Assembly: GCA_048938025.1 (NCBI GenBank)
Contig: JBHLMP010000013.1
Span: 12,004-76,003 of the forward strand
Direction: 5' to 3'
DNA from: Promethearchaeota archaeon
GTDB lineage: Archaea > Asgardarchaeota > Lokiarchaeia > Sigyniarchaeales > SOKP01
Length of the DNA stretch: 64,000 bases
Shown here: positions 14,194-64,000 of the stretch, piece after piece
Layout of the letters: each line of letters opens with the position of its first letter
How positions within the stretch are numbered: position 1 is the stretch's first letter
The notes under the pieces: generated by a model
Told to the model about the DNA's origin: nothing
Seen by the model: only the letters and a program-made list of their open reading frames with translations
Databases searched by the model: none
Position numbers and translations under genes: made by a program

Positions 14194-15120
14194 ATGAGAT
14201 TTCAGCCTTACAAAGTTTTCTCTATGATCTCTGGCTTTTCAATTATTTTAGAGGATGTTATTCTTTATTGTTCTAATAAAAAGAAGTATCCTTCTTTTGA
14301 AATAGTACTCTTTGTAGAAAAGCTAATGAGAAGTATAAATCCTAGAAATTCATGGCGTTTAAAGAAAATTTGTTTAACAAGTAAGAAATTAGGGAAAGAA
14401 CGGATTATTATTAAACATATAGTCACCAAGAAAAATCAAAATTTATTCTTTTGTATTGTTGGCAATTTTCTTGTAGGATCTAGTCAAGCTTTTAAAATGC
14501 TACAAGAATTTAGTAAACAAGTTAATAATCATTTTAAGAACTTGGCTGAATTAGAAGAGGCGTCAAAAAAATCTTCATTTAAAGAAATTATTAATCTTAT
14601 TACTAATTATCTAAAAGATAAATACGTTGAATACTTAAAGGAGGAAGAAATCGACCAAGATATTACTACTAGTAATAATAATACTATTCTTTATGCAGGA
14701 ATTTCTACCCAAGGTTTACCAATCATATCTCAATTATATGATAAAAATTTATTCAATAATTTAGAAAGAGAAACAACCAAAGAAAATATAGAATTATTTA
14801 TTTCAGATCTTTCTGCTAAACTAGCTACTATTGCGATGAATACTCAGATTCGAGCTAAAACAAAAATTAAAGAAATTCATTTAAATGATATTGAAGTTAA
14901 TAATAACAACAAGAAAATCATTTTGTTTGGAAGCATTAATGGGTATTCTATCGATTTTATTGCATCTGGTAATTTTTATAAGATTAAAGGTATATTTAAA
15001 CAACTCAAATCTAAAATGGTTTTAGATAATATCTTTAAAAACGAATTTTCTGGAGATTTAAAACCTTTTAAACATTTAAAGAAATATCTTAATGAAGTTG
15101 TAAAAGATTTTGACTATTAA
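14194..15120 (+). CDS. Hypothetical protein, possibly two longin-like domains
   Basis: Two beta-beta-alpha starts (ISGFSIILEDVILYCS; ILYAGISTQGLPIISQLY...LSAKLATIAM). Confidence 0.45.
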   Translation: MRFQPYKVFSMISGFSIILEDVILYCSNKKKYPSFEIVLFVEKLMRSINPRNSWRLKKICLTSKKLGKERIIIKHIVTKKNQNLFFCIVGNFLVGSSQAFKMLQEFSKQVNNHFKNLAELEEASKKSSFKEIINLITNYLKDKYVEYLKEEEIDQDITTSNNNTILYAGISTQGLPIISQLYDKNLFNNLERETTKENIELFISDLSAKLATIAMNTQIRAKTKIKEIHLNDIEVNNNNKKIILFGSINGYSIDFIASGNFYKIKGIFKQLKSKMVLDNIFKNEFSGDLKPFKHLKKYLNEVVKDFDY

Positions 15121-15148
15121 ATTATAATATATATAATTCATTTCATTC

Positions 15149-16441: not shown

Positions 16442-16466
16442 TTTTTTAAATTTAAAATTAAGAAGT

Positions 16467-23325: not shown

Positions 23326-23372
23326 AATACTCTTTCACTTAAATTTTCTAATTTATTTTTTTATCACTTTAC

Positions 23373-35161: not shown

Positions 35162-35209
35162 ATAGTTTAGACTTCTATAATATTTTAATTCAAAATATAT
35201 CTTAAAGAT

Positions 35210-36662: not shown

Positions 36663-37397
36663 TTATTCAAACTGATTATTCTTTATATGATTTAAAATTT
36701 TGAGATAAATATCTTTTTCAGCATCTTTTTTTTTCCTAAACTCATTTGATTGAAGTGTAATTGGTAATTCTATTAATTTATTTTTATTATTATTATCCAG
36801 AATTTGTGGATTTTTTGCTATCCAGAGAGGATTATGTTCAAGACCTCTCTTTTCGAAATCGAGTTTGATAAAAATACTTGTTTTGAATTTCTCTTGCAAA
36901 AATTCTAATAGAATATTTTTATTCAAAATTGTGGAATTTTCGATAATAGCTTCAAAATCTTTATAAAATCTGTTTATAATCTTTTCCTCCACTACCGTAA
37001 GATTATAGTTTGAATCAAGGAAAATCGCACCACATACTGCTTCAAAAACATCTGCGAGAATTCTAGTATCTTTAATTTTTTGCTTTTCTGATTTGAAAAT
37101 ATATCGCTCTAAATCAAATTCTATTGCTATTTTCTTAAAAGTTTCATCACTTTCCAATGACGCTTTAATTTTTGTAATTTCTCCGGGATCATCGATTCCC
37201 ATTTGATACATCTTTAAAATTAAGATGATTTTTACTATACTATCTCCAAGAATCTCTAAAAATTGATAAGTTGGTAGATTATACTCATTCCCAAATTGTG
37301 GTGTTGTTAATGCTTGAATTAAAAATTCCTCATTATTGAATTTATAATCTATTAATTCTTGGAACTGTTCTATTTTTTCTCTTATCCTAACCATCAT
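36663..37397 (-). CDS. rnc: Ribonuclease III family protein with C-terminal dsRBD-like domain
   Basis: QALT, FLEILGDS signature, ADVFEAVCGAIFLDS; KNILLEFLQ...KKKDAEK dsRBD-like. Confidence 0.82.
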   Translation of the reverse strand: MMVRIREKIEQFQELIDYKFNNEEFLIQALTTPQFGNEYNLPTYQFLEILGDSIVKIILILKMYQMGIDDPGEITKIKASLESDETFKKIAIEFDLERYIFKSEKQKIKDTRILADVFEAVCGAIFLDSNYNLTVVEEKIINRFYKDFEAIIENSTILNKNILLEFLQEKFKTSIFIKLDFEKRGLEHNPLWIAKNPQILDNNNKNKLIELPITLQSNEFRKKKDAEKDIYLKILNHIKNNQFE

Positions 37398-43765: not shown

Positions 43766-44602
43766 TTAATTTCTCAAAAAATCAATTATAATCTTATTGA
43801 CTTCTGAAGCTCTTGTTTTTGGCGATTCATGACCCGCTTTTTCTATAACCTTAAAAACACTATTAGAAATGCTTTTATGCATTTCCTCCATAACGTTTTT
43901 TGGGCTTACTTTATCATGTGAAGCTGCTAATAGTAAAGAAGGACTTTTTATCTCGTGTAATCTTTCCAATGTATTAAATCCTTTCATTGCCTTTATTTGG
44001 AGTTCTATATCACGAGGAGTTGGCATAAGTATCGTACTTTCTCGGATTTCATCTTCAGCTGACCATATTCCAAAGAATTTTTTCTTAGGATTCGCTTTAA
44101 TTTCTTTTCGATATTTATGATAAAACCAAATATGAGCATTATCCCAGTATGCCTTCTCAGGGTCCACTTTAATAAGTTCTAATTGTTCTAGTCGATTTTT
44201 TTTCAAAATTTCTAAACCTACATTATCAGGACTGCCCGTGACAGTATTTATTAATACCAAATTATAAACATATTCAGGATATTGCAGAACAAACTGCTGA
44301 GCAATTAAACCTCCCATAGATACACCTAATACATGTGTCTTTTCTATTTTAAGGTAATCTAGTAGACTTCGAATATCGTCAGCTAAAGTTTCCATTGTAT
44401 AGGGTTCATTAACTCTTTCAGATTTTCCAGCCCCGCGATTGTCAAATATTATTACTTTAAACTTCTGTGATAAAGCAGGGATTTGACATTTAAAACCCTC
44501 TTTTCGCGATCCAAAACCATGAATTAAAATGATTGGGTCTCCTTTTCCAAAAATCTCATAACAGATTTTTACTCCATTGAGTTTCACAAAATATTCTGTC
44601 AT
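43766..44602 (-). CDS. Alpha/beta hydrolase (copy 1 of 3)
   Basis: LIHGFG, DNRGAGKS, GVSMGG, ASHD, AGH. Confidence 0.92.
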   Translation of the reverse strand: MTEYFVKLNGVKICYEIFGKGDPIILIHGFGSRKEGFKCQIPALSQKFKVIIFDNRGAGKSERVNEPYTMETLADDIRSLLDYLKIEKTHVLGVSMGGLIAQQFVLQYPEYVYNLVLINTVTGSPDNVGLEILKKNRLEQLELIKVDPEKAYWDNAHIWFYHKYRKEIKANPKKKFFGIWSAEDEIRESTILMPTPRDIELQIKAMKGFNTLERLHEIKSPSLLLAASHDKVSPKNVMEEMHKSISNSVFKVIEKAGHESPKTRASEVNKIIIDFLRN

Positions 44603-44664
44603 GTTAATTCATATTTAAATCATCTTTTTTAAAAACTAAAATAATTATTACATTAATTTAATCT

Positions 44665-45519
44665 CTAACTTTTAAGAAAATCTATGATATACTTATTAAC
44701 TTCTGGTGCTCTTTCTTTGTAAGAACTATGTCCTGCTTTCTCAATTACAATAAATTTACTATTAGGTATTCTTTCATGAATTTGCAGATTTACAGACTTA
44801 GGCATTTGGCGATCATTTGAAGCACACATTATTAATGTTTCACTTTTAATTTCATGCAATCGATCTATAATATTATGAGTCCCTAGCGCATGTGCTTGAT
44901 TTTCTATATCTTGTGGAGTTGCAGGGTTAATACTATCTTCTCTAATCAAATCTTCCGCTGAAAACAGACCATGAAATTTCTTTTTTGGATTTTCCTTCAT
45001 CTCTTTTCGAAATTTAAGTGTATAACTCATAGGAGTTGAATCGAAAAATGCTTTAACAGGATCTTTCAATCTTTTTTTGTAGGAAGTTATTTTTCCCTGC
45101 TTGTAGAGTTCTAAGCCAGATTTTTCTTCAGGCCATTTAGGAGTTGTATTTATTAAAACTAATTTAATTACGCAATTAGGATATTTAACAGCAAAGTGTT
45201 GAGCAATCATACCTCCAACGGAGACTCCAACAATGTGAGCTTTATCGATTTTGAGATATTCCATCAAACCATTTATATCATCAGCAAATAATTCCATAGT
45301 ATATAGCTGATTTGGACGATCAGATTTACCAGATCCTCGATTATCGAATTTTATTACCTTGAAATGTTCAGATAAGGGACCAAATTGTGCTATCCAACTT
45401 TCTTTTTTTGCTCCGAATCCATGAATTAAGAAAACTGGTACTCCTTCACCTTTTATTTCATAACATATTTTTATTCTATTAACTTCTGCAAATAATTCAG
45501 ACATGTAAGAATCATCCAT
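44665..45519 (-). CDS. Alpha/beta hydrolase (copy 2 of 3)
   Basis: LIHGFG, DNRGSGKS, GVSVGG, ASND, AGH. Confidence 0.92.
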   Translation of the reverse strand: MDDSYMSELFAEVNRIKICYEIKGEGVPVFLIHGFGAKKESWIAQFGPLSEHFKVIKFDNRGSGKSDRPNQLYTMELFADDINGLMEYLKIDKAHIVGVSVGGMIAQHFAVKYPNCVIKLVLINTTPKWPEEKSGLELYKQGKITSYKKRLKDPVKAFFDSTPMSYTLKFRKEMKENPKKKFHGLFSAEDLIREDSINPATPQDIENQAHALGTHNIIDRLHEIKSETLIMCASNDRQMPKSVNLQIHERIPNSKFIVIEKAGHSSYKERAPEVNKYIIDFLKS

Positions 45520-45611
45520 GTAATTATTTCAAGTTAGATAATCAAATCTTCATCAATATTAAAGATTTTTTCCTAAATTCTATAAATAAGAAGATTGAAG
45601 GATTTCACATT

Positions 45612-46475
45612 CTAATCTTTTAAAAAACCAATAATAATTTTATTGACTTCAGGAGCTTTAGATTTTAGATATTCATGTCCTGCTTTATCAATTATTCTGA
45701 ATAAACTATTGGGTATTCTTTCATGAATTTCTAACATTACTGATTTGGGTACTAACCTATCATGAGAAGCAGCTAATATCAGTGTTTTATGCTTGATTTC
45801 ATGCAATCTATCGAATGTATTTTGTGTCTTAAGAGCATGTGCTAAATTTTTAATGTCTTGAGGAGTAGGTGGATTAGTTCTAAAGTATTCCATAAGATCC
45901 TCAGGTGACCAGAGTCCATAAAACTTCCTTTTCGGTTCATTTATCATTTTTTTTCTAAATTTAAAGTCAAATCCTAGTAGAGTACTGTTCCAAAACGCAG
46001 CTTCTGGATCTTTTTTTAAAAGCTCTAATCCATCTAATCGAGATTTAATATATGCTTCTGGACCTCCGCCTTCTGAAATTTTTGCTATCGAACTAATCAA
46101 TATTAGTTTGTCTACTTTTTCAGGATACTTTAAAACGAAATTTTGAAGTATTGTACCACCAAGAGAAAAACCTATAAAATGAGCCATCTTAATTTTTAGG
46201 AGATCCATTAATCCTTTTAGATCATCTACAAATAAATCCATAGTATATGGCTGATCTGGTCGTTCAGATTTGCCAGTTCCCCGACAATCATACCTTATTA
46301 CCTCAAAATGTTCAGATAAAGACTCAAACTGAGCCATCCAGCTTTCTTTTTTTGAACCAAAACCATGAACTAAAAATACCGGTTTTCCTTCTCCTTTCAC
46401 TTCATAACAAAGTTTTATTCCATTGATATCAGCAAAAAATTCTGTCATAATAACCATTATTTTATTTCTTTTCAA
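45612..46475 (-). CDS. Alpha/beta hydrolase (copy 3 of 3)
   Basis: LVHGFG, DCRGTGKS, GFSLGG, ASHD, AGH; start probably at MTEFFA. Confidence 0.92.
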   Translation of the reverse strand: MKRNKIMVIMTEFFADINGIKLCYEVKGEGKPVFLVHGFGSKKESWMAQFESLSEHFEVIRYDCRGTGKSERPDQPYTMDLFVDDLKGLMDLLKIKMAHFIGFSLGGTILQNFVLKYPEKVDKLILISSIAKISEGGGPEAYIKSRLDGLELLKKDPEAAFWNSTLLGFDFKFRKKMINEPKRKFYGLWSPEDLMEYFRTNPPTPQDIKNLAHALKTQNTFDRLHEIKHKTLILAASHDRLVPKSVMLEIHERIPNSLFRIIDKAGHEYLKSKAPEVNKIIIGFLKD

Positions 46476-51526: not shown

Positions 51527-54500
51527 TTATCGCGTGCTTTGTATAAATTGCATATCTTTTTTTTGCTCTTTTTCCCATCTCTTACGCTCCGATCGCAATT
51601 TGAATATATCAACATCTTTATAAATCAAACCCTCTTCTTTAGCAGGAATCATTCGTTCAGTACGATCTTTTTCAGGAGTGTATATAAGAGATTCTCCAAA
51701 TTCTGCAACATTGACAAAGAAGCAGTAGGCATATATAGATCTACGAGCATCAAAATGAGCCGCTTTAAAATCAGCTGTGACAGGAGTGAATGCAGGATTA
51801 ATTACAATATCAACAGGAGGTTCAAAATTTTTTAATTCCACTCTCAAATCCATATCAAGGAAATCCCGGCAAATAATTATAGCAATTCTTCCAAACTCAG
51901 TATTACATATGGTTGTATTTCTTGGATAGGAACTTGTTTCAATTGCTTCTTTAACTTTTTTTCCTTCAATGTGCATCGTTGCAGGGATATGTTTTTCCTG
52001 TTTCCACAGAATACCTTCGGGACTAATTACGACACTTATATTTTTCTTAGATTTTTCATCGTGATAAGACCCCGGAATAATATATATACCATAAATTTTA
52101 GCATAGTTCATCAAATCTTCTAAAATTTCACTATAATTTAAATCAATCATCATTTCTGGAAAAATAAGAATATCAACTCCATTAGAATTAGCCTTTTCAA
52201 TCATTTCTTTATAGGTCGATCTAAGTGAATTTAATACATCTTCTTTTATTCCTAATAATCCAAGCTTTTTAATATCAAAAAACTCTTTTAGAATGTCTCC
52301 AGATTTAGATAATCCAATCTGAGCAATACCAATTCTGCATTTATTTCGTTCAATTTTAGAGTATTGCTTTAGTAAATCATTATATAGTAAATTATATTTG
52401 GTTGTTTTCTCCAAACTTTCCGATAATCCACTAGCTTCTACAGTTAATTGATTTATCTCGCTTAATCTTGGTGATAAACTGGATTCTAAGGGACACGCGG
52501 GAGCAACTATCCCTGCTGTACTTCTTGAAATTACAGGATTGCTAATTGTACTTAAAGCAGAATATAAAATCATTTCTTCTTTTGCTATACGATTTAATTT
52601 TTCCTGAATTTCTTCTTCTCTTTCTCTATATCCTGATTTTTCAAATATATCTGCAGCAGATTTTAGATATTTAATACCAACTTCTAACTGTTTTTTTCTA
52701 TTATCAAGCTCTAATTCTTGATCTGCTTTGATTAAATGCCACAAGGCATCGAAATAGGAAGAAGTAGCTAAAGCCCAGTCTGCACCACCATTAAATCCTC
52801 CTCTTTCATAAGAACTAGATGCTTTTCTTAACATCATTTTTACTTTTTTATAATAATCTGCTTTTTTTTCTATATCTGTAGATTCATCAAATTTACAACC
52901 GTTTTCTAATGCTAAACAGACAGAAGAATTACCAGAAGCTAATAGTTTTAGCTTGCTATCCATGAATAAATCACTAGCTTTTAAAAATAGTTTTGAAGCT
53001 TCTAAAAACCTCTCTGGTTCTTGATAGTTCTCAGCGAGTTCCATCCCTTCCCAAGCTCTACATAGATGATAAATTGCTTCTAATTCCTTCCTCTCTCGTT
53101 CAATCTTAAATAATGTACAAATATCTCTAAATTGAGAGGCTGCCAAAGCGAAATTCTCGGCAGCAGATAGATGCTTACCTTTCTTTTGGAGAATTCTGGC
53201 TTTCTCAAGGTTAATACGAGCTAAACAGTAATTAATTCTTACGTTAGCTACTTTTTCCAGTTTTGATATTCTTTCTATCTCAATTTTATTAGAAGACTGA
53301 GTTAAAGCTTCTTTTAGTACATCTATTGATTTCTTGAAGCATTCTTTTGTAATATTATATTTATTAATTGCTTCTTGGTGTTCTTCATTCTTACTTGCAT
53401 TTTCTGAAACTTCTAATGATGCCCAAGATGAATAATATGAAGCTTCATATTGATATTTGGATATATTTTTTAAGATCTCACAAGCCATATCATATTGTGA
53501 TTTTGCTTTTAAATGATCCTCTTTTTTATGATTCGCTTTAGCATTTTCAATCAATTTCCAAGCATTATCATATTCAATCTTTTCTTTTATTCGATCTTTT
53601 AACAATTTAAATTGAATCTTTTCTAATGATTTTATGTGAGCTTTACTTGCCATATCATATTGTTGAGCAGAAGCTAGGTGATTACCCAATCTATCTTCAA
53701 TTCTCGCTAAATATTCATGAGCAGCAGCAGTGTGGTAATAATAACCCTTTTCTTGAGTATCTTTTATTAAATGAAGAAATATTTCTCTTGCCTGAGCTAA
53801 TGGTTCTTTTTTCTTAGTAAGGATAGCCAAATCCTCATATAACAATCCAAGATGCATCTGATCAGCAACAAAATCTCTATAAGATTCAATTGATAATTCA
53901 ATATGATTCTTAGTTGCATCTATTGCAGTTAATAAATTCTTTACTTTTTCTTGTTTATTTGTTAAAATCTCAGATAAAGTCTTATGAGCTCGATATAATG
54001 AAAGATAGCCAGCAGCTCTACTCATCCCTGCTTTATACTTGTCCCCTGCATTTTCGGCTGCATATGCACAATCAAACATATTTTTGATAAATTTCTCACG
54101 ATTTTCTCCTTTGGGAGTTAGAAGAACTAATTGTGAATATAGATTAGTTAAAATCTGATATGATAAAGGTAAAAATGGTCCAAAAGGGAGTCTTTTCAAC
54201 CCATTTTCTATTTCCTCGATTCCCTTCTGAGCATAAGTTCTTCTTAAGTCTGGTTTTAAAAAACTGCTTTGAGTAAAATTTTGATAATATATTGCTGCCA
54301 AAAAATTAGTCAAAAAACCCCAAAAAGAATATAAGTTTTGATAAATTTTTCCCTTTTCTTTAATTTCATTAATATCTGCTAATATTCTTTTTTGTAGATC
54401 TTGGAGTCTTCCTAAAACAGCAAGATGGTAATCCAACCAAAATATAAAATGTATAAGTAATGGTTTAATTTTTATTGCTCTAATAATTTCTAAAGATTTC

Positions 54501-55372
54501 TTGCAAAAATTTATACCTTTATCAGCAAGATCTTTTTGTTCTTTCTCATCATAAATAAACCTAGCCGCAATTTGGCAATTTACAGAACCTTTCGAATGGT
54601 AAATTAAAGCTTTATTGTATTTGTCGTCGCATTGTTCAACATACTTCAAAGCTTCATTACATTTATCAAGGGACTTAATAAGGATCTGTTCCTGTTCACT
54701 GTGCATCCAAAAAAGTTTATCTGCTCTGGAAAAACTTATCCATGTTTTGATGCCAATAATAAAACTATTTATGAATAAGAAAGTTCCTATATATTTCTTA
54801 TAATCTAGTTCATATGATAAATTCAAACCTCGTTCATTTATTTCATCACCATTTTGACATAATTGCTCAAATTCAATAGGATCGTCGCAATATTGTAATA
54901 AATAAGCTAAAGTTATTGAAGATTGGTTTAAAATCCTCAATAAATTACTCTTATCATTTTCTTTATTATAAATTTCACTAACTTCCAAATATTTTTGAAA
55001 AGATTTAAGAAAATTTCCTTTACAATATTCAGGAGATGTTCCCCTATCTGCATTAACTCTTAATTTTCCTGCTTTGCACTCTAATTCTTTTACTTTATCA
55101 TTCATTTCTTTATAAAGATTTATTGCCATATCATATGCTTCTATAGAATTTTCTATCCATTGTGTATGTTCTTCTTCTGTATCAGCTGTTAGATTTGCCA
55201 TTTGGTAAACATTTCCTATTTTTTCGTAAATTTTAGCTTTTAATTTTAAATCTTTCTCATCTATTAGAGATTCTAGGAGTTGTTCATACAATTTTGCGGC
55301 TTCTATCAAATTATAATTCTTTTCCTCTGCTTCTGCTTCTATTAATAATTCTGCTGGTTCTATTTTTACCAT
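51527..55372 (-). CDS. Large TPR-like alpha-solenoid protein fused to a C-terminal carbon-nitrogen hydrolase (nitrilase) domain
   Basis: About 960 aa of helical repeats, then RIGIAQI, ILIFPEM (Glu), QEKHIP (Lys), IIICRDF (Cys). Confidence 0.85.
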   Translation of the reverse strand: MVKIEPAELLIEAEAEEKNYNLIEAAKLYEQLLESLIDEKDLKLKAKIYEKIGNVYQMANLTADTEEEHTQWIENSIEAYDMAINLYKEMNDKVKELECKAGKLRVNADRGTSPEYCKGNFLKSFQKYLEVSEIYNKENDKSNLLRILNQSSITLAYLLQYCDDPIEFEQLCQNGDEINERGLNLSYELDYKKYIGTFLFINSFIIGIKTWISFSRADKLFWMHSEQEQILIKSLDKCNEALKYVEQCDDKYNKALIYHSKGSVNCQIAARFIYDEKEQKDLADKGINFCKKSLEIIRAIKIKPLLIHFIFWLDYHLAVLGRLQDLQKRILADINEIKEKGKIYQNLYSFWGFLTNFLAAIYYQNFTQSSFLKPDLRRTYAQKGIEEIENGLKRLPFGPFLPLSYQILTNLYSQLVLLTPKGENREKFIKNMFDCAYAAENAGDKYKAGMSRAAGYLSLYRAHKTLSEILTNKQEKVKNLLTAIDATKNHIELSIESYRDFVADQMHLGLLYEDLAILTKKKEPLAQAREIFLHLIKDTQEKGYYYHTAAAHEYLARIEDRLGNHLASAQQYDMASKAHIKSLEKIQFKLLKDRIKEKIEYDNAWKLIENAKANHKKEDHLKAKSQYDMACEILKNISKYQYEASYYSSWASLEVSENASKNEEHQEAINKYNITKECFKKSIDVLKEALTQSSNKIEIERISKLEKVANVRINYCLARINLEKARILQKKGKHLSAAENFALAASQFRDICTLFKIERERKELEAIYHLCRAWEGMELAENYQEPERFLEASKLFLKASDLFMDSKLKLLASGNSSVCLALENGCKFDESTDIEKKADYYKKVKMMLRKASSSYERGGFNGGADWALATSSYFDALWHLIKADQELELDNRKKQLEVGIKYLKSAADIFEKSGYREREEEIQEKLNRIAKEEMILYSALSTISNPVISRSTAGIVAPACPLESSLSPRLSEINQLTVEASGLSESLEKTTKYNLLYNDLLKQYSKIERNKCRIGIAQIGLSKSGDILKEFFDIKKLGLLGIKEDVLNSLRSTYKEMIEKANSNGVDILIFPEMMIDLNYSEILEDLMNYAKIYGIYIIPGSYHDEKSKKNISVVISPEGILWKQEKHIPATMHIEGKKVKEAIETSSYPRNTTICNTEFGRIAIIICRDFLDMDLRVELKNFEPPVDIVINPAFTPVTADFKAAHFDARRSIYAYCFFVNVAEFGESLIYTPEKDRTERMIPAKEEGLIYKDVDIFKLRSERKRWEKEQKKDMQFIQSTR

Positions 55373-55568
55373 CCTTGATTATTATTTCGTCTTATATTGA
55401 AAAGTTATTATTCTTGGTTTTCATATCTTAACCTTTAAGTATAATAATAATGAGATTTCTCAATTTATAATTCTTTACGTTTTTATTAAGTATATTGTCC
55501 TTAAGATTTCTAAATTGAGAAAGAGTATCCAATTAAATAAGATAAAAAAAACTTTTAAAATAATTATT

Positions 55569-56903
55569 TCAATGTTTTAATTTCCTTTTAATGATTATCC
55601 CTATTATTAACATACTACATAAAACCAAAAGAGATAGATCATACGCATGTATTTCCATACCATCAGTTTTATCAACTGACATAGAATATTTTGCCAGCTC
55701 TACATCAACATCACCCGCACCAAAACTTCCTGTCAAACCTGCCAGAAAAATATTGTTAGATGAATCTACTGTGATAGCACGCCACTGATCGTGTTTTGGA
55801 CCCCCCCATGTATGATTATATTGTTGCTCGCCATTAGCATTGAATTGTACCAAACAGAAGTCATTTAATTGAGCAGCAGAATAATTTACAAATCCAGCAA
55901 GATATATTGTATCTTCTGAATTAATTGCAATATCCGTTGTAATCTCCACACCAGTCTTGCCCCATGTTCGATTCCATAGCATTGTACCTGCATTATTATA
56001 TTTGATAAGAACCATATCATAGTTCGTTGGTGATCCAACCAGAGTGATTCCAGAAACATAAACATTCTCAGATGAATCCAATGCTATTCCAGTCCCATAT
56101 TCAAAATTATTTTTATCCAATGTTCGATTCCATTGAAAAACACCTAAATTATTATATTTCAAAAGGCATATGTCTGTTCCACTGGATCTTGCGTATTGCC
56201 CCGTGAGATAAATATTGTTTGAAGAATCCAATACAATACGAGAACCAAAATCTTCTCTATTTCTCCCCCATGTATAATTATATTGAACATTTCCTAAGTT
56301 ATCAAATTTGATTAAAATTAAATCACTATCAAATTCATTACTCATGTTAAATGAGTATCCTGTAGCATATATATTTTCAGCGGAATCTAATGCTATCCCA
56401 ACGCAAACATCATTGGGACCATTATCCCATGTAATATTACCTAGATAATCTCCTAGATTATTGTATTTTATTATTATTAGATCATTATCCCCATTGTCTT
56501 CTGAAGTTCCCCCTACATATATATTATTTCCGGAATCTATTGTAATTGAATAAGCAATATCATCTCCCTGCTGATTAAATGTTCGATTCCATTGAAATTG
56601 ACCCAAATTATTAAATTTTGCCAAGAATATAGCTAGAGAGGGACCTAGTCCCTCTATAGTGGGATAATATCCTGTTATATAAATATTACCTAATGAATCT
56701 AACGCTATTCCTCTTCCCACTTCATTTTCAATACCACCCCAAGTATAGTTCCATTCTAGAGTAATCGAATTGTCAATAGATGAATTCGATAAATTTTTAT
56801 TGATAACTTTTTGGTAGATATCAAATCTCTGACTCAGTTCATCAATAAATCCTAAACATAAAACAAGAAGTAAAATCACTAAAATAATTTTTTTCACTTT
56901 CAT
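55569..56903 (-). CDS. Secreted SBBP beta-propeller repeat protein with C-terminal sorting/TM tail
   Basis: Seven repeats WNxTWG...GIALDSxxNIYxTG...LxKY; signal peptide; C-terminal IHAYDL-hydrophobic-KRKLKH. Confidence 0.88.
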   Translation of the reverse strand: MKVKKIILVILLLVLCLGFIDELSQRFDIYQKVINKNLSNSSIDNSITLEWNYTWGGIENEVGRGIALDSLGNIYITGYYPTIEGLGPSLAIFLAKFNNLGQFQWNRTFNQQGDDIAYSITIDSGNNIYVGGTSEDNGDNDLIIIKYNNLGDYLGNITWDNGPNDVCVGIALDSAENIYATGYSFNMSNEFDSDLILIKFDNLGNVQYNYTWGRNREDFGSRIVLDSSNNIYLTGQYARSSGTDICLLKYNNLGVFQWNRTLDKNNFEYGTGIALDSSENVYVSGITLVGSPTNYDMVLIKYNNAGTMLWNRTWGKTGVEITTDIAINSEDTIYLAGFVNYSAAQLNDFCLVQFNANGEQQYNHTWGGPKHDQWRAITVDSSNNIFLAGLTGSFGAGDVDVELAKYSMSVDKTDGMEIHAYDLSLLVLCSMLIIGIIIKRKLKH

Positions 56904-57054
56904 AATTTTTTAATCTCACTTACTTTTTTGTCTCTAATGGTCCTTCACATAGAAGGGTTTGGTTTGTAAAGAAGATAGAGTCTTATTTAAGTTTTTCTCA
57001 AGAATTTAGAATTATGAAAATTAAAGAAAATAAAAAAATAGATAATTTAAGTTT

Positions 57055-57285
57055 TTATTTTAAATCTTTAAAACGGAAAACATGTTTTTCTTGATTTAAA
57101 AGAAAATATCCCATTGAATTTTTCCACTTTTTGTCATCTCTTCGCTTCTGTATTAGGTCAACTTCTCTTTCCTTTACAGGAATTTGCTTAACCCTTTCCA
57201 TAGTTTCTTTTTTAATTTCTTCTACTATGATATATTTAGGAAATTCTTTTAAAAGTGGATAAATTACTTTTTTACTTACTGTCAT
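57055..57285 (-). CDS. Small hypothetical protein
   Basis: 76 aa with GGAGG SD upstream. Confidence 0.6.
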   Translation of the reverse strand: MTVSKKVIYPLLKEFPKYIIVEEIKKETMERVKQIPVKEREVDLIQKRRDDKKWKNSMGYFLLNQEKHVFRFKDLK

Positions 57286-57287
57286 TT

Positions 57288-57440
57288 TTAATTTCCTCCA
57301 TTGAATTTTTTTAGTTGATATAAATATAAATATTTCTTTCCATTACTGCCATAAGGAGAAATCAGATTTCTCGAATTATTATCTGAATTCCTTAAAACAT
57401 TTTTCAATATTTCATCAATTTCTTCTTCACATGTTATCAT
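57288..57440 (-). CDS. Small hypothetical protein (50 aa, not in the ORF track)
   Basis: MITCEEEIDEILKNVLRNSDNNSRNLISPYGSNGKKYLYLYQLKKFNGGN; GGAGG SD upstream; stop 2 nt before the next ATG. Confidence 0.5.
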   Translation of the reverse strand: MITCEEEIDEILKNVLRNSDNNSRNLISPYGSNGKKYLYLYQLKKFNGGN

Positions 57441-57525
57441 TTTTTTACTTCCTCCATTCGATTTTAATTTTTTTTATTAATTAATATAATAAGAAATATA
57501 AACAAATATATACATATTGTATAAA

Positions 57526-57556
57526 TAATATATACGGAAAAAAAAAGTATATATTA
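57526..57556. promoter_or_regulatory. Candidate operator: 10-bp inverted repeat with 11-bp spacer upstream of the PhoU-type regulator
   Basis: taatatatac-N11-gtatatatta; similar half-sites aaatataaac (57494) and aaatatatac (57504); AT-rich context lowers significance. Confidence 0.4.
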
Positions 57557-57577
57557 CATTATTACAATATATTATGT

Positions 57578-58468
57578 ATGGAAAGAATTTTTAGGAAATT
57601 GCAGGCTTTAGGTGGTTCGCATGTTATTAGTTTACCAAAAAATTGGGTTAATAATTTTGGTTTAGAGAAAAATGATCCCTTAGCAATAGATATTCGAAGT
57701 GATGGTTCTCTAATTATTTCTCCAAAATTACAGCATAGTGAGGAAGATTTGAAAGACGAATTAGTGCTTCACTCAAGTCCGTATGTTGGGAGAGAGCTTG
57801 TAAAAAATTGCCTATCAGGACAAACAAAGTTAGTTATAATATCAGATAAGGAAATTGAAAGCAATTTAAGAAATGAAATTCGTTGGCTTGTTAATGGTCT
57901 TCCTAACACAGAAATAACGGAAGAACAACGGCAGAGAATTGTAATTCAAAATTTTGGTTATAAACAAATTCCCACGAAAAAACTAATCCAACGTTTACTA
58001 TACTTAATTGCTGATATGTTTGAGTATTTGAAGGATGGGTCTATTGAGGAATTAAAATACAATTTTATACAATTGCGAAAGTTTTATTTTATATTAGTTA
58101 CTCATATTAGAACATACCTTAGAACTGGAGTGTACGTTTCAGAGGATCAGGATTTTACTCCACTAGAGGCAATGGATTTTCGTATGTTCTGTGAGAAAAT
58201 TCAAGAAATTGGCAAAATCTTAAGAGACATGCGTCTTAGCGAAAATGTCATGGACTTTTTTAATGAAATCCATCAATATTTTAACGATGTTATGAACTCC
58301 TATTTAAAAAAAGATCTAATTGTAGCCCATAAGTCTTGGTTAAGGAAAGATAAATTAGTAGAAAAAGCAATATCACTGATAGAGAGTTTAGATTATGATG
58401 ATAAAGCCAAAGTGAAAGACATGATACGGATTGCTGAGAATTGTAAAGATATGGCAGCTTTTATTTAA
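57578..58468 (+). CDS. phoU: Archaeal phosphate uptake regulator PhoU family (AbrB-like N-terminus)
   Basis: RKLQALGGSHVISLPKNW AbrB domain; helical PhoU-like repeats ending RIAENCKDMA. Confidence 0.8.
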   Translation: MERIFRKLQALGGSHVISLPKNWVNNFGLEKNDPLAIDIRSDGSLIISPKLQHSEEDLKDELVLHSSPYVGRELVKNCLSGQTKLVIISDKEIESNLRNEIRWLVNGLPNTEITEEQRQRIVIQNFGYKQIPTKKLIQRLLYLIADMFEYLKDGSIEELKYNFIQLRKFYFILVTHIRTYLRTGVYVSEDQDFTPLEAMDFRMFCEKIQEIGKILRDMRLSENVMDFFNEIHQYFNDVMNSYLKKDLIVAHKSWLRKDKLVEKAISLIESLDYDDKAKVKDMIRIAENCKDMAAFI

Positions 58469-58501
58469 TATTGCAAGACTCTAAAGTCTAATATGGTGAA
58501 T

Positions 58502-61500
58502 TTATGGATTTATTTCATTATTACAAGTCCAGCATTTTTCTCCGTTTGCTTTTAGTGAGTAAGCACATGTCAAACAATAATGGGTTTTGCAATTCGGACA
58601 AATGTATACGGTCCCTACAATTTGTCCTTTATGGACAACGCAAATGAACTTTTGTTCTTCAACTTTTATCTCAGATTCAATTTTTTCTAATTCTTTTCTT
58701 TCTTTAGCTGTTAAATCTGATATTTTTACTTTCTTCTCAATTTTTGCTATATCTTTAATCTCACGTTTCTCTTTAATCTTAGTCGCAGCCTCAGTTAATC
58801 TACGTACTTCACCTAAATTGGGTGATAAACTTGTCTCTAAAGAGCATGCTGGTGCGATTATCCCGCTTGTACTTCTGGAGATCGAAGGCTTCCGAATGGT
58901 GTTTAAGGCTGAAATTAAAATTTTCTCTTCTTTTTCAACCATATCTAATCGTTCAAGAACTTCTTTTTCCTTATCTTTATAATTGTTTTTTCCAAAAAGT
59001 TCGGCAGCAGATCTTAAGTACATTGCTCCGATTTCTAAAAATTCTTTCCTTTTATTAAGTTCTAATTCTTCATCTGCTCTGATTAAGTGCCATATTGCGT
59101 CAAAATAAGTAGAAGTAGCTAGTGCCCAATCAGCTCCTCCTTCAAAACCTCCTTTTCGATATGATGATGAGGCACTCCTAAGCAGCATTTTAATTTTAGT
59201 ATATAAATCTGCTTTTAATCTTATATCCATTTCTTTATCAAAAATAGTTCCTTGTTCAAGTGCTTGACAAAAAGCCGAATTACCTGCTGCCAATAATTTC
59301 ATTTTACTGTCAGTAAAAAAAGTACTTGCCTTTGTGAATAAATTTCCTGCTTCAGAATATTTATTAGGATCACCATAATTTTCTGCTAATTCCATATTTT
59401 CCCAAGCTTTACATAGATAATAAACAGCTTTTTGTTCTTCCTGCTCCCTTTTCATTTTAAATAAATTACAAATCTCCCTAAATTGGGCGGCTGCTGAAGA
59501 AAATTTTTCAGCAGCAGTAATATGTTCCCCTTGTTTTCCTAAAATTCTTGCTTCTTCAAGGTTTATTCTTGCAGAACAATGATCTATCCTTACTTTAGCT
59601 AATTTCTCCAATTTTTCAATTCTCTCTTTTTCAAGCTTTTGTTTGGCATCTTTAAATGCATTTTCTAACTTTCTTATAGCTGTACCAAATTGCTTTCTAG
59701 CTTCTTCATAACATCTAATAGTTTCTTCGTATTTTTCCTGTTTACTAAATTCTTCTGCAGCTTCTTGAGATATCCAAGCAAGATAGTAAGGCGCTTCATA
59801 GTTATAATTTGGTAAATCATTTAATATTTCATATGCTCTTTTATAATTATCCTTGGCTTCAAGGTGATTTTCTTTTTTATGATTCGATTTTGCATTTTCA
59901 ATTAAATTCCATGCATGTAAGTATTCTATTTTCTCATTAATTTTATTTTTCAATGATTTAATTTTGATAGCTTTAAAAGACTTTTTATATGCATTCTGTG
60001 CTTCTTCATAATTTTTTGAGGAAATCCTGTAATTCCCTAAGCGATCTTCTAAATGAGCAAGATATTCATAAGCAGCAGCAGTGTAGGAATGAAATTTTCT
60101 TTTACTGCTCTCATCAACTACCAGTAGAAATGCCTTCTTTGCTTGCTCAAATGGTTCTATATCTCTTGTTATAATACCTAATTCTTGATATAAAAGCCCT
60201 AATCGTAGTTGAAAAGCAATATTTCCAGCGGGAGACTCAACTTCATTCCCAATATAATTCCTATGGGCCTTAATAGCTAAAGTTAAATATTTATTTTTCT
60301 CTTCTGGACTTGTTGATATGTCTGCTAAAGTTTTATAAGCACGATAAAGAGAAGAAGAGCCTGCAGCCGAAGCAAATCCACCTTCATAATTTTGCCCAAT
60401 ATTATTGGCTTTTTCTGCATAATTGAGCATTATCTTTGCATATTGCTTTTGTTCTTCTGAAGAATCAGTTAAATTGATTAATTGAGAAAACGACCATGTA
60501 AGCATTTGATATGACCATGTAAAGAAAGGCAGAAAAGAAAACGTTTCTAACGATTTTTTAGCATATTGAATTGATAACTTAGCATATTTTATCTGTTGAG
60601 ATACAGTAAAAAAACTTCTCTGAGCAAGATTAGTGTAATAGAATGTTGGGAGGAGATTTCTGTAAAAATCAGATATAATATTTAGACCTTTGTATATTTT
60701 TCCTAACTTTCTAATATCATGAAGGTCTTGAAGCATTCTTTTTTCTAAATATTTGAATCTTCTAAAAGATATTGCCATATAATTGCTAAACCATATCACG
60801 AATACTATTAATTCTTTATCCATCGTCTTTTTGCTTAAAAAAACTGAATGTTCGAAATATTCAAATGCCTTATCCGCCAAGTTCTTTTGTTCTCTAGCAT
60901 CTTCTATATATTGTATTGCATAGCCACTATATATCCCTCCAGCAAAATTATAAAGAAGTCCAAGAGTTCTATAATCCTCAGAATCTTGTATAAGCTCTAA
61001 AGATTCATCAACTTTCAAAATGTATCTCTCAAAGGTTTTTTTCCAATTTTCATCTCTCTTAAAGGGAATAATAAAAAGTTCAGTAAAAAGAAGCCTTCCA
61101 ATAGATTCTACTGATTCACCAATGATCTGAAAATTTTTAATATCTTTTGAAATATCAAAAGCTTTTTCTCCTATTCTCCTACCATTATCGCAAGCCTTAA
61201 GAATTTCACTTTTTTTAGTATAAAAACATGTCATAAAGTAACAACTCATTGCTGCTCTGTTTAATGTTCTAGCAAAACCCTCAGAATTATCTAGCTTAGA
61301 GAAAAGCTTGCTAGATTCAAGAAAAAGTTCATATGAGTATTCTATATTCTTTTTTCCTTCCGTAATTGAATTTGCGATAAGTCCTGTATAAAAACATGAT
61401 TCTGCTTCACATTCTAACTCATCAGATCTGCTTTTAATCTGTTTATAAAGAGATTTTGCTTCATTATAGGCATCTATTGTAGACTTGGTAAAACTTAAAT

Positions 61501-61717
61501 ATTCTTCTTGATTATCCGAAGTATTTGCGGCTCGAGAATATGCTAAACCAAGCATCTTATAGATCTTTGCAGCTTGTTCTTTCATCTTATTATTCAAGTA
61601 TCTGTGTACTATCTCTAGGTATAATTCCGCTGCTTTTTTCCAATTATACTCTTTTTCCTCAACCTTTGCTTGTTCTAAAATATTTGAGACTTCTTCTTCT
61701 ACACTCATGTAAAACAA
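58502..61717 (-). CDS. Large TPR-like alpha-solenoid protein with C-terminal RING-like zinc finger
   Basis: Paralog of the 51527-55372 core (EDRLGN, GADWALATS, APAC); ends CVVH...CPNC...CLTC...CWTC. Confidence 0.85.
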   Translation of the reverse strand: MFYMSVEEEVSNILEQAKVEEKEYNWKKAAELYLEIVHRYLNNKMKEQAAKIYKMLGLAYSRAANTSDNQEEYLSFTKSTIDAYNEAKSLYKQIKSRSDELECEAESCFYTGLIANSITEGKKNIEYSYELFLESSKLFSKLDNSEGFARTLNRAAMSCYFMTCFYTKKSEILKACDNGRRIGEKAFDISKDIKNFQIIGESVESIGRLLFTELFIIPFKRDENWKKTFERYILKVDESLELIQDSEDYRTLGLLYNFAGGIYSGYAIQYIEDAREQKNLADKAFEYFEHSVFLSKKTMDKELIVFVIWFSNYMAISFRRFKYLEKRMLQDLHDIRKLGKIYKGLNIISDFYRNLLPTFYYTNLAQRSFFTVSQQIKYAKLSIQYAKKSLETFSFLPFFTWSYQMLTWSFSQLINLTDSSEEQKQYAKIMLNYAEKANNIGQNYEGGFASAAGSSSLYRAYKTLADISTSPEEKNKYLTLAIKAHRNYIGNEVESPAGNIAFQLRLGLLYQELGIITRDIEPFEQAKKAFLLVVDESSKRKFHSYTAAAYEYLAHLEDRLGNYRISSKNYEEAQNAYKKSFKAIKIKSLKNKINEKIEYLHAWNLIENAKSNHKKENHLEAKDNYKRAYEILNDLPNYNYEAPYYLAWISQEAAEEFSKQEKYEETIRCYEEARKQFGTAIRKLENAFKDAKQKLEKERIEKLEKLAKVRIDHCSARINLEEARILGKQGEHITAAEKFSSAAAQFREICNLFKMKREQEEQKAVYYLCKAWENMELAENYGDPNKYSEAGNLFTKASTFFTDSKMKLLAAGNSAFCQALEQGTIFDKEMDIRLKADLYTKIKMLLRSASSSYRKGGFEGGADWALATSTYFDAIWHLIRADEELELNKRKEFLEIGAMYLRSAAELFGKNNYKDKEKEVLERLDMVEKEEKILISALNTIRKPSISRSTSGIIAPACSLETSLSPNLGEVRRLTEAATKIKEKREIKDIAKIEKKVKISDLTAKERKELEKIESEIKVEEQKFICVVHKGQIVGTVYICPNCKTHYCLTCAYSLKANGEKCWTCNNEINP

Positions 61718-61852
61718 TGTAAAATCAATAATAATTGTATTAAATTATAAATATAGAAATTCTAATTTTAATTCTATTCTTTAAATCTTTTCCAATACCA
61801 TAAATCTTTTCTTCTTATATTCAATACTTTTTCGATCTTTTAATTTCTGATT

Positions 61853-64000
61853 TTAAGGATTTATTTCATTGTTACATGTCCAACATTTTTCTCCGTTTGC
61901 TTTTAAGGAGTAAGCACATGTCAAACAATAGCATGTTTTACAATTTGGACAGATATATACAGTACCAACAATATGTCCTTTATGGACAATACAGATAAAT
62001 TTTTGTTCTTCTACTTTAATCTCAGATTCAATTTTTTCTAATTCTTTTCGTTTTTTAACTGTTAAATCTGGTTTTTTTGCATCTTTCTTGATTTTTACTG
62101 GTTCTTTAATCTCACGTTTCTCTTTAATTTTGGTTTCTGCTTCAGTTAATTTGTGCACTTCACTTAAATTCGGTGATAGACCTGACTCTATTGGGCAAGC
62201 TGGAGCACTAATTCCTATAGTACTTCCCGATATTGATGGCTTTTTTATTGTATTCAAAGCTGATATTAAAATACTTTCTTCTTTCTTGACCATTTCTAAT
62301 TGCTCAAGAACCTCTCGTTCTTTATCTTTATATTTAGCTTTGGAAAAGAGTTCTGCTGCGGATTTTAAGTACGTAGAACCAACTTCTAATAGTTCCTTCT
62401 TCTTAGTAAAGTCTAATTCCTCGTCTACATTTATTAGATGCCAGAGAGCATCGAAAAATGTTGAAGTTGCTAATGCCCAATCTGCTCCACTTTCAAAACC
62501 ACCTTTTCTATATGAAGAGGCAGCATTTCTGAGCATCGACTTTATTTTTGTATATAACTGTGATTTAAGTTTCATATCAGCTGTTTTATCGAAATTTGTG
62601 CCACATTCTAAGGCTTGACAGAAAGCTGAATTACCTAAAGCTAAAAATTTTAGTTTGGTTTCAGTAAAAAGATTACTTGCTTTTGTAAACAGTTCTGCAG
62701 CTTCTGCGAATTTAGGAGGATCTTCATAATGTTCCCCATATTCCATGCATTCCCATGCTTTACAAAGGTAAAAATTAGCTTCGAGTTCCCTACGTTCTTG
62801 TTCAACATTAAAATGGGTACAAACTTCGTTTAATTGTAAAGCTGCGCTGGCGAACTTTTCCGCTGATGCAATATGTCTGCCTTGCTTTCCAAGAACTCTT
62901 GCGTTTTCAAGATCAATTCTGGCAGAACAATAGTTCATCCTTATTTGAGCTAATTTTTTGAGTTTTTCAATTCTTACTCTCTCTTCTTTGTTTTTAATGT
63001 TTTTATAAGCTTCTTCTAGATCTCTAATTGCTGTTTCAAAGCCACCTTTAGTGAGTTCAAAACTTTCAATAGCTCCCTTTTGGTTTTCATTTTTACTAAA
63101 GTTTTCTGCTTTTTCTTGTAGAGCCCAAGTTGCATAATAACAAGATTCATAATAGAAACTCGGTAATTCTTTAAGGATTTTGCTAGCAGTCTTATAATTC
63201 TTCTTAGCATTTGAATGGTTTTCCCTTTTATGATCTTCTTTTGCTTTTTCTATAAAATTCCATGCTCGGGTATAATTTATCTTTTCTTCAACTTTATTTT
63301 TTAAAAGTCTATATTCAATATGTTTCAATGACTCATTATAAGCATCTTGAGCTTTTTGGTAATGTTCTGAAGAATTCAAGTAATTTCCCATTCTATCTTC
63401 AATGCGTGCAATATACTCATGGGCAGCAGCGGCATAAGAATGGTATCCTCGTTCATAACATTTTGATATCACGTTTGAATATATCTCCTTTACTTTCATC
63501 AAATTATCAATCTTACCTGTTGTAATTCCTAATTCTTCATACAAAAGACCTAACCGCATTTGTGCTGCTATAATGCCAGTTCTAGACCATACTGCATGCT
63601 CCATATTTTTTTCAGAGGCATCTATAGCAGCAGTTAACATCTCAACCTTTTCTTGTCTATTAGTAGCATTATCTGAGAGAGTTTTATAAGCTCTAAATAG
63701 AGATGAGTAACCTACAGCTCTCGAAAATCCTCCCTTGTATTTTTCACCAATATCATTGGCTTTTAAAGCAGATTGAAGCATTTCGTGGATATATTCTTCT
63801 CTTTTTTCTTTAGAAATATCGAGATTGATTAATTGTGAGTAAGACCAAGTTGACATTTGATAGGGCCATCCAAAATAAGGTCTAAAAGCAAGTTTAATTA
63901 AAGCTTTTTTAGCATAGTCGATGCCCTTTTTAGCATAAGACTTTCTTTGATCTAATGTAAAAAAACTCCTATGTGAAACGGTAGCATAATAAAAAGCAGG
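61853..64000 (-). CDS. TPR-like alpha-solenoid protein with C-terminal RING-like zinc finger, 5' end beyond the window
   Basis: Frame stays open from 63856 to 64000 (PAFYYATVSHRSFFTLDQRKSYAKKG...), aligning with the paralog's PTFYYTNLAQRSFFTVSQQ; same C-terminal finger. Confidence 0.85.
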   Translation of the reverse strand, partial: PAFYYATVSHRSFFTLDQRKSYAKKGIDYAKKALIKLAFRPYFGWPYQMSTWSYSQLINLDISKEKREEYIHEMLQSALKANDIGEKYKGGFSRAVGYSSLFRAYKTLSDNATNRQEKVEMLTAAIDASEKNMEHAVWSRTGIIAAQMRLGLLYEELGITTGKIDNLMKVKEIYSNVISKCYERGYHSYAAAAHEYIARIEDRMGNYLNSSEHYQKAQDAYNESLKHIEYRLLKNKVEEKINYTRAWNFIEKAKEDHKRENHSNAKKNYKTASKILKELPSFYYESCYYATWALQEKAENFSKNENQKGAIESFELTKGGFETAIRDLEEAYKNIKNKEERVRIEKLKKLAQIRMNYCSARIDLENARVLGKQGRHIASAEKFASAALQLNEVCTHFNVEQERRELEANFYLCKAWECMEYGEHYEDPPKFAEAAELFTKASNLFTETKLKFLALGNSAFCQALECGTNFDKTADMKLKSQLYTKIKSMLRNAASSYRKGGFESGADWALATSTFFDALWHLINVDEELDFTKKKELLEVGSTYLKSAAELFSKAKYKDKEREVLEQLEMVKKEESILISALNTIKKPSISGSTIGISAPACPIESGLSPNLSEVHKLTEAETKIKEKREIKEPVKIKKDAKKPDLTVKKRKELEKIESEIKVEEQKFICIVHKGHIVGTVYICPNCKTCYCLTCAYSLKANGEKCWTCNNEINP

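Follow-up and report, generated by a model that had tools for sequence, protein, structure and literature searches.

Large helical-solenoid proteins with exchangeable C-terminal modules in an Asgard archaeon and their possible connection to ubiquitin-like signalling

The stretch of DNA analysed here (64,000 nucleotides, hereafter the window; contig JBHLMP010000013.1 of the Promethearchaeota archaeon assembly GCA_048938025.1, positions 12,004 to 76,003) ends with three minus-strand paralogs, P0001, P0002 and P0003, that represent a modular family of large solenoid proteins. In this family the solenoid is constant and is followed by a conserved junction peptide and a linker, predicted to be disordered, that forms an exchange zone; beyond it many unrelated C-terminal modules, or tails, are found. 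Both tail modules of the window, a nitrilase-type domain and a RING-like zinc finger, also occur in or beside clusters of ubiquitin-like (Ubl) genes of the same genome, a connection that is new. A first-pass annotation made from the sequence had proposed a constant sensor or scaffold with a variable output domain, as in polymorphic toxins or immune receptors. This interpretation is partly supported: the constant scaffold is followed after the junction by unrelated tails (nitrilase, RING-like finger, TIR, metallophosphoesterase and an alpha/beta domain), and the link to the Ubl clusters appears to fit the family at least as well as the toxin and receptor analogy.

The three proteins share an all-helical core of about 950 residues, which precedes the junction peptide. 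P0001 (51527..55372, 1281 amino acids), delineated by its open reading frame (ORF), Pfam and a structural model, comprises four parts, all encoded like the rest of the features below on the minus strand: the tetratricopeptide repeat (TPR)-like solenoid (residues 1-945, 52538..55372; model, Foldseek and identity gradient among paralogs); the junction peptide PxISRSTxGIxAPACPxExSLSPRLSE (residues 946-973, 52454..52537; alignments and model); the linker that constitutes the tail-exchange zone (residues 974-991, 52400..52453; low model confidence and collapse of DNA identity in relatives); and the CN-hydrolase module with its leader KYxLxYxDLL and its C-terminal FIQSTR (51530..52399; Pfam PF00795, PADLOC and fold match). 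P0002 (58502..61717) is 1071 residues long if translation begins at a TTG, but the ATG at codon 4 (61708) is the likelier start. Its junction peptide (residues 944-971, 58805..58888; alignments) is followed by a charged linker (residues 972-1023, 58649..58804; translation and alignment) and by a RING-like cross-brace zinc finger with a C-x2-H and three C-x2-C pairs (58505..58648; profile against the PDB, and model). P0003 (61853..64000, 715 amino acids) has the same organization, with core, junction (62156..62239; alignments), linker and RING-like finger (61856..61999; translation and finger alignment), and is open at its 5' end, as the contig ends where the window ends. Aligned over the whole shared length, the other two copies are 43% and 47% identical to P0001, and P0002 and P0003 are 62% identical to each other; with E-values from 1e-245 to 1e-296, these matches cannot be due to chance.

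ORFs and alignments thus agree with the first-pass annotation on the three co-oriented paralogs and their helical core; each motif block that it quoted is found in the alignments, its positions for the APAC motif (52493-52504, 58844-58855 and 62195-62206) are exact, and the Pfam CN_hydrolase match and the ligand pattern bear out one nitrilase tail and two tails made of a charged linker and a zinc finger. Its view of the proteins as cytoplasmic and devoid of an NTPase also holds. No signal peptide or transmembrane segment was detected in the three proteins (no 19-residue Kyte-Doolittle window above 1.6), none of 122 family proteins has a Walker A motif (0/122), and Pfam gave no NTPase match. 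Scans of the three window proteins against Pfam, NCBIfam and PADLOC returned no reverse transcriptase (RT) family, and PADLOC gave no match for P0002 or P0003.

The AlphaFold model covers residues 82-1281 of P0001 (1200 residues; mean predicted local distance difference test, pLDDT, of 84.1; predicted template-modelling score, pTM, of 0.68) and exhibits about 34 helices in the core. The best Foldseek matches of this core are Ctr9, SKI3, IFT-A, separase, Naa15 and Ypp1 (E-values 1e-9 to 1e-5). Ctr9, SKI3/TTC37, IFT-A, Naa15 and Ypp1 are eukaryotic TPR scaffolds, all of them protein-assembly platforms; at about 10% identity and template-modelling (TM) scores of 0.18-0.33, however, the likeness is that of a generic superhelix, with no sign of common descent. 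Conservation along the core is uneven: the N-terminal ~430 residues of P0001 are variable and the C-terminal half is conserved. Among the seven full-length copies of this genome, six solenoid-nitrilase proteins and P0002, identity amounts to 19-20% at residues 140-235, 35-47% up to residue 480 and 52-69% at residues 732-981, with 19-38% across the N-terminal half. The nitrilases of the paralogs are 62-93% identical over their C-terminal ~200 residues. Since four-fold degenerate sites are saturated in cores and tails alike, the paralogs are old and the nitrilase tail is under strong purifying selection. On the same grounds, gene conversion was rejected as the cause of the nitrilase conservation. 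The exception is the pair encoded on contigs C6 and C33, with tails 79% identical in amino acids and 0.61 at four-fold sites and cores at 51% and 0.27, a pattern that suggests tail exchange within the genome.

The junction peptide, whose family consensus is P-x-I-S-x-S-T-x-G-I-x-A-P-[AS]-[CS]-P-x-E-x-S-x-S-P, forms part of the core. The cysteine of its APAC motif was first thought to be invariant, which is true of the three window copies only: of 143 motif-bearing sequences among 161 examined, 117 have Cys and 26 Ser at this position, and the distant relative P0210 has Thr-Pro-Thr in place of the junction Cys. Because this Cys is not invariant and is missing in distant relatives, an essential thiol chemistry, as a metal ligand or a thioester, is unlikely; a Cys or Ser nucleophile for self-processing at the junction stays conceivable. 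In the P0001 model the junction itself has pLDDT values of 65-80, and the ~20 residues that follow (972-991) drop to 40-48. This linker is predicted to be disordered and coincides with the exchange zone.

Residues 1053-1259 of P0001 match the Pfam family CN_hydrolase (E-value 4.4e-9, 36.5 bits against a cut-off of 23.2), and the best match in the profile libraries is the PADLOC model RTasNitrilase (E-value 4e-13). The catalytic residues E98, K152 and C193 are invariant in the eight aligned tails (8/8). Among 120 homologs, the FPE, KH.P and CRD motifs are found in 119, 117 and 120 sequences, respectively; from HMMER alignments to Nit-type enzymes and the established features of the family, we take these motifs to carry the Glu-Lys-Cys triad. 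The extreme C-terminus is equally conserved, reading FIQSTR in 101/120 and IQSTR plus one residue in 18/120. The sequence is remote from every solved structure (best PDB E-value 5.6e-4), and the alpha-beta-beta-alpha sandwich fold is supported by Foldseek, which retrieves Nit2 (2w1v; E-value 2.5e-6, TM score on the target 0.61) as well as NitFhit, the amidase 6ypa and 2vhh; an archaeal amidase and beta-alanine synthase are among the nearest folds. To note, the most conserved stretch of the nitrilase, residues 1192-1241 (window 51650-51799), is 93% identical among paralogs, yet its pLDDT is 38-51; it may fold only between protomers.

The zinc finger of P0002 and P0003 possesses eight ligands in the order C-x2-H, C-x2-C, C-x2-C and C-x2-C. 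Across the 13 fingers collected from the genome, Cys is invariant at seven ligand positions out of eight, while the second is Cys or His. A profile of these 13 fingers retrieves the RNF4 RING (E-value 3.1e-5) and the RING-like domain of TFIIH p44 (5e-4) from the PDB, followed by the RINGs of RBBP6, TRIM37, Mdm2 and RNF113A (1e-3 to 5e-2). The model of the finger (pLDDT 84) has RING and p62 ZZ domains as its first Foldseek matches (TM scores 0.5-0.66, none at E ≤ 0.001), and the Atlas lead for it stands at 0.88. Judged by its ligands, the finger is RING-like. Characterized RING E3s offer a close comparison: the finger likewise has an eight-ligand cross-brace, homologous fingers occur beside Ubl, E1, E2 and JAB genes as does the small RING protein of the Caldiarchaeum Ubl operon, and it is fused to a repeat-type recognition domain. 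It differs from them by its C-x2-H first pair, by a C-x2-C instead of C-x-H arrangement of ligands 3-4, and by the 950-residue solenoid that precedes it. The combination of solenoid and finger also recalls TPR and U-box ligases such as CHIP. E2 binding and Ubl transfer by the window finger are putative functions, suggested by gene neighbourhood.

The genome (3.52 Mb in 88 contigs) encodes six full-length solenoid-nitrilase proteins (one each on C82, C6, C12 and C33, two on C27), the two finger-tailed copies of the window and two fragments at contig ends (C43 and C6). A gene of contig C13 encodes an 871-residue fusion in which an N-terminal alpha/beta domain is combined with an Arf-like GTPase, the final ~290 solenoid residues and the nitrilase, and contig C51 encodes a MalT-like TPR protein with the same nitrilase tail. 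The finger is present on 11 further ORFs: seven multi-pass membrane proteins of 344-414 residues, two MalT-like TPR proteins and two short ORFs. In public databases, 785 protein clusters match residues 480-1281 of P0001; nearly all of the 120 listed are about 1275 residues long and carry PF00795, and they bear no other name than "nitrilase-related carbon-nitrogen hydrolase" or "predicted amidohydrolase". By these counts the default tail is a nitrilase, with the finger as a variant, the reverse of the initial view of the nitrilase as a single fusion. In a sample of 301 genomes of the phylum, the core is found at E ≤ 1e-10 in 58: 40 of 68 genomes of the same taxonomic family (the genome itself excluded), then 6/76, 6/21 and 5/6 in three others, the last at 23-26% identity, and none elsewhere in the sample. 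Within the genus, genomes have 0 to 10 core matches, with tandem arrays of up to five. Some copies of the family are interrupted by internal stops. No description of the family was found in the literature searched, which did not extend to the supplementary tables of Asgard genome papers, where an orthologous group could be listed.

That tails are exchanged after a constant core is documented at several scales. Among 20 loci picked deliberately and non-randomly from length classes other than 1275 residues, tails comprise 10 nitrilases, 5 fingers, 3 TIR domains, 2 unnamed alpha/beta domains and 1 calcineurin-like metallophosphoesterase. The TIR assignment, which concerns relatives and not the window, is above the cut-off (TIR_2 E-values of 8e-18 and 2e-14 in the two tails scanned, 65.5 and 54.6 bits; 49.9-56.7 bits in three representatives, for a cut-off of 28), and the metallophosphoesterase matches Pfam Metallophos at 2.9e-12. 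An identification of the alpha/beta tail as Roadblock/longin was not borne out: Pfam gave no match, no PDB profile fell below an E-value of 0.5, and the Atlas lead was weak (Fuz_longin_1, 34% of one cluster, 0.83).

An exhaustive HMMER search with core residues 480-975 yielded 404 cluster representatives, of which 235 reach E ≤ 1e-30. Tails were classified for 129 of the 150 representatives listed, those with at least 60 residues past the end of the core; the 21 left aside are truncated or have no last core segment. Thirteen tail classes emerged. A beta-sandwich stands alone in 56 proteins and is followed by a winged helix-turn-helix (wHTH)-like domain in 27, a KaiC-like domain in 13, an AAA domain in 2, and a nitrilase, a cyclase and a DUF835 domain in 1 each; the remainder consists of 8 nitrilases, 6 TIR domains, 3 fingers, 2 metallophosphoesterases, 3 alpha/beta domains and 6 of a second, initially unassigned alpha/beta type. 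The beta-sandwich proteins belong to Bathyarchaeia, and their cores are 28-31% identical. In these Bathyarchaeial relatives (L040-L042, P0162-P0272), a beta-sandwich of ~115 residues follows the solenoid and precedes the wHTH-like, KaiC-like, AAA, DUF835, cyclase or nitrilase domain; the group forms another modular branch within this superfamily.

A tree was computed from the last ~300 core residues of 80 sequences, those sufficiently aligned among 89 collected by non-random selection. Tail labels change 24 times on this tree, against a minimum of 10 and a mean of 39.4 after shuffling; hence tails are clustered yet repeatedly exchanged. Forcing the ten finger-tailed cores into one clade costs 187.8 log-likelihood units (approximately unbiased test, p-AU 2.8e-12), for a group defined by its tail and a test performed after the tree had been seen. 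The disagreement between core and tail histories anticipated at the outset is therefore observed. Four genes from four genomes, with a nitrilase, two fingers and a TIR domain, locate the exchange: over core, junction and some 30 codons beyond, their DNA is 80-93% identical, and about 30 codons after AP.C identity falls to ~40%. Homology had been placed as ending right after LSPxLxE and APAC proposed as a recombination boundary. The similarity of P0001 to P0002 and P0003 does end shortly after that motif, and a fixed exchange zone exists, but its position is some 30 codons past APAC, in the low-confidence linker. One finger-tailed gene even retains the first ~20 residues of the nitrilase leader.

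Tails have also travelled farther. The core of P0210 is 28% identical and its nitrilase tail 61% identical, and the nitrilase module has consequently moved between distant core lineages. The finger and its linker are found at 79-85% identity on MalT-like TPR heads (638-794 residues), and the finger tail recurs in 31 clusters. Each window tail is thus also borne by other, unrelated heads: a MalT-like TPR protein and a GTPase protein in the case of the nitrilase, MalT-like TPR and multi-pass membrane proteins in that of the finger.

The second set of results concerns the company these tails keep. In this genome the E2 family PF00179 has five matches that exceed the cut-off, and finger-bearing membrane proteins adjoin three of them. 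Contig C13 holds a complete Ubl cluster (L013, G000:C13:1-20000; genes 5406-17656), which contains four multi-pass membrane proteins with the RING-like finger. Its gene order is a Ras-like GTPase, the N-domain/GTPase/partial-solenoid/nitrilase gene, two membrane-finger genes, an N-domain/GTPase-like gene, JAB, a ThiF-type E1, an E2 with the HPN motif and the catalytic Cys, a Ubl ending in VIGG followed by NYKR, and two further membrane-finger genes. The C76 (L018) and C22 (L019) loci are smaller versions, with Ubls ending in VIGG+FLKT and VIGG+YLY. Of the genome's 13 finger-bearing ORFs, 6 are no more than 10 kb away from an E2 gene, in the three Ubl clusters. An archaeal small RING protein from an operon of this kind is described as required for E1- and E2-dependent ubiquitylation in vitro (PMC5654768). 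That small GTPases are coupled to a Ubl operon here seems worth a separate study.

This arrangement is conserved in relatives. The order Ras, nitrilase gene, JAB, E1, E2 and Ubl is found in five other genomes of the genus, each with a membrane-finger gene, and in three of the five JAB immediately follows the nitrilase gene, in the same direction. In 8 of 11 genomes, no more than 6 kb separate the GTPase/partial-solenoid/nitrilase gene from this E2; in the other three the two are on separate contigs. The cluster-type E2 occurs in 33 of the 301 sampled genomes of the phylum, all of the same family. A match to the solenoid family is present on the same contig within 11 kb in 16 of these 33, including full-length arrays in G084, G232 and G138; the chance expectation is about 2% per genome (a rough estimate for about three copies in about 3.7 Mb), and the genomes are kin, so that the count overstates independence. 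Within the family, solenoid and E2 are both found in 26 genomes, the solenoid only in 14, the E2 only in 6 and neither in 22. In three genomes, short ORFs of ~343 residues that match only the C-terminal part of the solenoid are situated 1.5 kb from a cluster-type E2 (G126:C110:20951-21511, G218:C17:226997-227557 and G252:C161:11757-12305).

Taken together, these data make it plausible, with chances a little short of even, that the solenoid core is a target-recognition scaffold with plug-in output modules linked to Ubl signalling. The variable N-terminal half of the solenoid would bind a protein or a ligand, and the tail would act on the bound target or be switched on by it or by assembly. The RING-bearing copies P0002 and P0003 would be E3-like adaptors that carry a charged E2 (E2~Ubl) to the target held by the solenoid. 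The nitrilase copies would act on an amide bond, by cleavage or transfer, and probably only once their tails have self-associated, as nitrilases generally need. Recombination past the junction and in the disordered linker would exchange the C-terminal module.

A bolder version, in which the solenoids are the target-recognition arm of the Asgard Ubl system, with dozens of interchangeable substrate receptors mounted on RING or nitrilase modules and the nitrilase a new enzyme of the Ubl pathway, is rather improbable. If it were true, the nitrilase might form, move or cleave an amide or isopeptide bond through a Cys acyl-intermediate, and the family might prefigure in archaea the multitude of E3 receptors seen in eukaryotes, possibly in the service of immunity.

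Several observations weigh against a role in Ubl signalling. The window genes have no adjacent Ubl genes, their neighbours being a beta-propeller protein, an AbrB-like protein and metabolic genes, and no recurrent neighbour family was found at the 12 paralog loci of the genome (11 core-bearing ORFs and the C51 gene). The solenoid occurs without a cluster-type E2 in 14 genomes of the family and in 17 outside it. The finger stays below the Pfam threshold for RING domains (zf-RING_2, 15 bits for a cut-off of 27.3, scored on a paralogous finger), Foldseek returned no finger match at E ≤ 0.001, and the finger has an Asn at the position that, in the RNF4 alignment, presumably corresponds to the linchpin Arg. 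Antiviral effectors, more typically than Ubl pathways, employ TIR, metallophosphoesterase and nitrilase domains; the best profile for the nitrilase is a defence model, and a function of nitrilases in Ubl pathways is not known to us.

An antiviral function is the most serious alternative, though an unlikely one on balance: the proteins would be stand-alone sensor-effectors against viruses or mobile elements, the variable solenoid sensing an invader component, the proteins then oligomerizing, the tail (a nitrilase as in DRT1, a TIR NADase or a phosphoesterase) killing or arresting the cell, and the RING copies representing a signalling variant. Besides the TIR_2 and Metallophos tails, it is favoured by the nitrilase, which matches RTasNitrilase at 4e-13 against 4.4e-9 for the general Pfam family, by the patchy distribution (58/301 genomes of the phylum, 0-10 matches per genome within the genus), by tandem arrays and copies with internal stops, and by a fast-evolving N-terminal half together with repeated replacement of the tails. 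The closest known system is DRT1 (UG1) of the class 3 UG/Abi group, which assembles an RT, alpha-helical repeats and a C-terminal nitrilase (PDB 9yfd). In the accounts of PMC8632793, PMC13275509 and PMC9226505, this nitrilase is required for defence and active only as a tetramer, in which conserved C-terminal residues complete the active site. P0001 likewise exhibits helical repeats followed by a CN-hydrolase with intact catalytic residues and a conserved C-terminus, and the low-confidence monomer model of its most conserved stretch would fit a fold completed between protomers. According to PMC9226505, the nitrilase of class 3 UG/Abi can be replaced by a phosphohydrolase, loosely as in the solenoid family; that of UG24, however, is a COG3294 protein, unlike the calcineurin-like tail found here. 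The window proteins further differ from DRT1 by the absence of an RT domain, a helical part three to four times longer and an archaeal host. In addition, the profile match of the nitrilase to DRT1 9yfd has an E-value of 0.08 and 9yfd is absent from the 50 best fold matches. The window is no defence island, PADLOC is silent on P0002 and P0003, no NTPase or other known switch is present, the tails of relatives are of signalling type (wHTH-like, KaiC, cyclase), and the RING and GTPase links indicate Ubl signalling instead.

The two analogies raised by the first-pass annotation can be weighed in the same terms. STAND/NLR-like sensors such as Avs combine a repeat sensor, an NTPase and a variable effector. 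The solenoid family resembles them by its repeat sensor with interchangeable effectors, TIR included, by the diversification of the sensor half and by its patchy distribution, but it has no NTPase and its effector is C-terminal, after the junction peptide. In polymorphic toxins, C-terminal domains are swapped on a constant body at a conserved junction. The solenoid proteins, by contrast, possess neither signal peptide nor transmembrane segment, no small immunity-like gene recurs downstream at the 12 loci, and some of their tails are non-toxic (RING and alpha/beta).

A third possibility, quite unlikely, is that these are general signal-transduction scaffolds unrelated to immunity or Ubl, with the solenoid for input or assembly and ordinary outputs as tails, as in one-component systems. 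The Bathyarchaeial wHTH-like, KaiC-like, AAA, cyclase and DUF835 tails (27, 13, 2, 1 and 1 of the 129 scored) and the fold matches to eukaryotic assembly scaffolds such as Ctr9, SKI3, IFT-A and Naa15 speak for it; the Asgard subfamily, however, has no such classic outputs, its tails being other kinds of enzymes, and the Ubl-cluster neighbourhood is left unexplained. It is very improbable that the proteins are metabolic nitrilases or amidases for nitrogen scavenging, with a chance TPR extension and with other tails as rare fusions or assembly chimeras. Such a role agrees with the database names of the family, with the nearest folds (Nit2, amidase and beta-alanine synthase) and with a metagenomic paper in which Heimdallarchaeial nitrilases are read as those of nitrile users (PMC11193907). 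It is difficult to reconcile with six full-length copies in one genome, each with a fast-evolving 950-residue head, with alternative tails that recur across numerous independent assemblies (31 clusters in the case of the finger alone), with breakpoints that are sharp and in frame, as chimeras would not give, or with the remoteness of the nitrilase from all characterized enzymes. As for the nitrilase itself, it may belong to the Ubl pathway, on account of its operon membership, or else be a DRT1-like effector that would deplete an essential metabolite after oligomerization. The Ubl, immune and signalling readings of the family are not mutually exclusive.

The surroundings of the three genes contain a few features of their own. 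An SBBP beta-propeller repeat protein (55569-56903, minus strand) is encoded between P0001 and P0002 and has a homolog on C51 (locus G000:C51:14213-16486), beside the TPR-nitrilase gene; an alpha/beta hydrolase also recurs at the window and C51 loci. These SBBP beta-propellers and alpha/beta hydrolases, near two nitrilase-tailed genes, are the sole repeats among neighbours. Directly upstream of P0002, on the opposite strand (57578-58468, plus), a 296-residue protein bears an N-terminal AbrB/MazE-type domain (E-value 5e-6). Farther away, on the minus strand, a row of giant genes (20350-36388) encodes two FtsX-type permeases of 991 and 995 residues, a 1607-residue S8 subtilase with an Ig-like domain, a 1340-residue DUF11/TRAP-beta-like protein and an ABC ATPase. 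It is followed by an RNase III-like protein (36663-37397, minus; Pfam E-value 3e-16), here in an archaeal genome, and by three alpha/beta-hydrolase paralogs of 278, 284 and 287 residues in tandem (43766-46475, minus).

No known organisms are more closely related to eukaryotes than Asgard archaea, and the family described here offers concrete candidates for target selection by their Ubl systems. It would tie ubiquitin-type signalling to effector domains of prokaryotic immunity, and it indicates that designs uniting a sensor and a cassette effector in one protein exist without an NTPase switch. Finally, the junction peptide and its linker provide a defined natural boundary for domain exchange.

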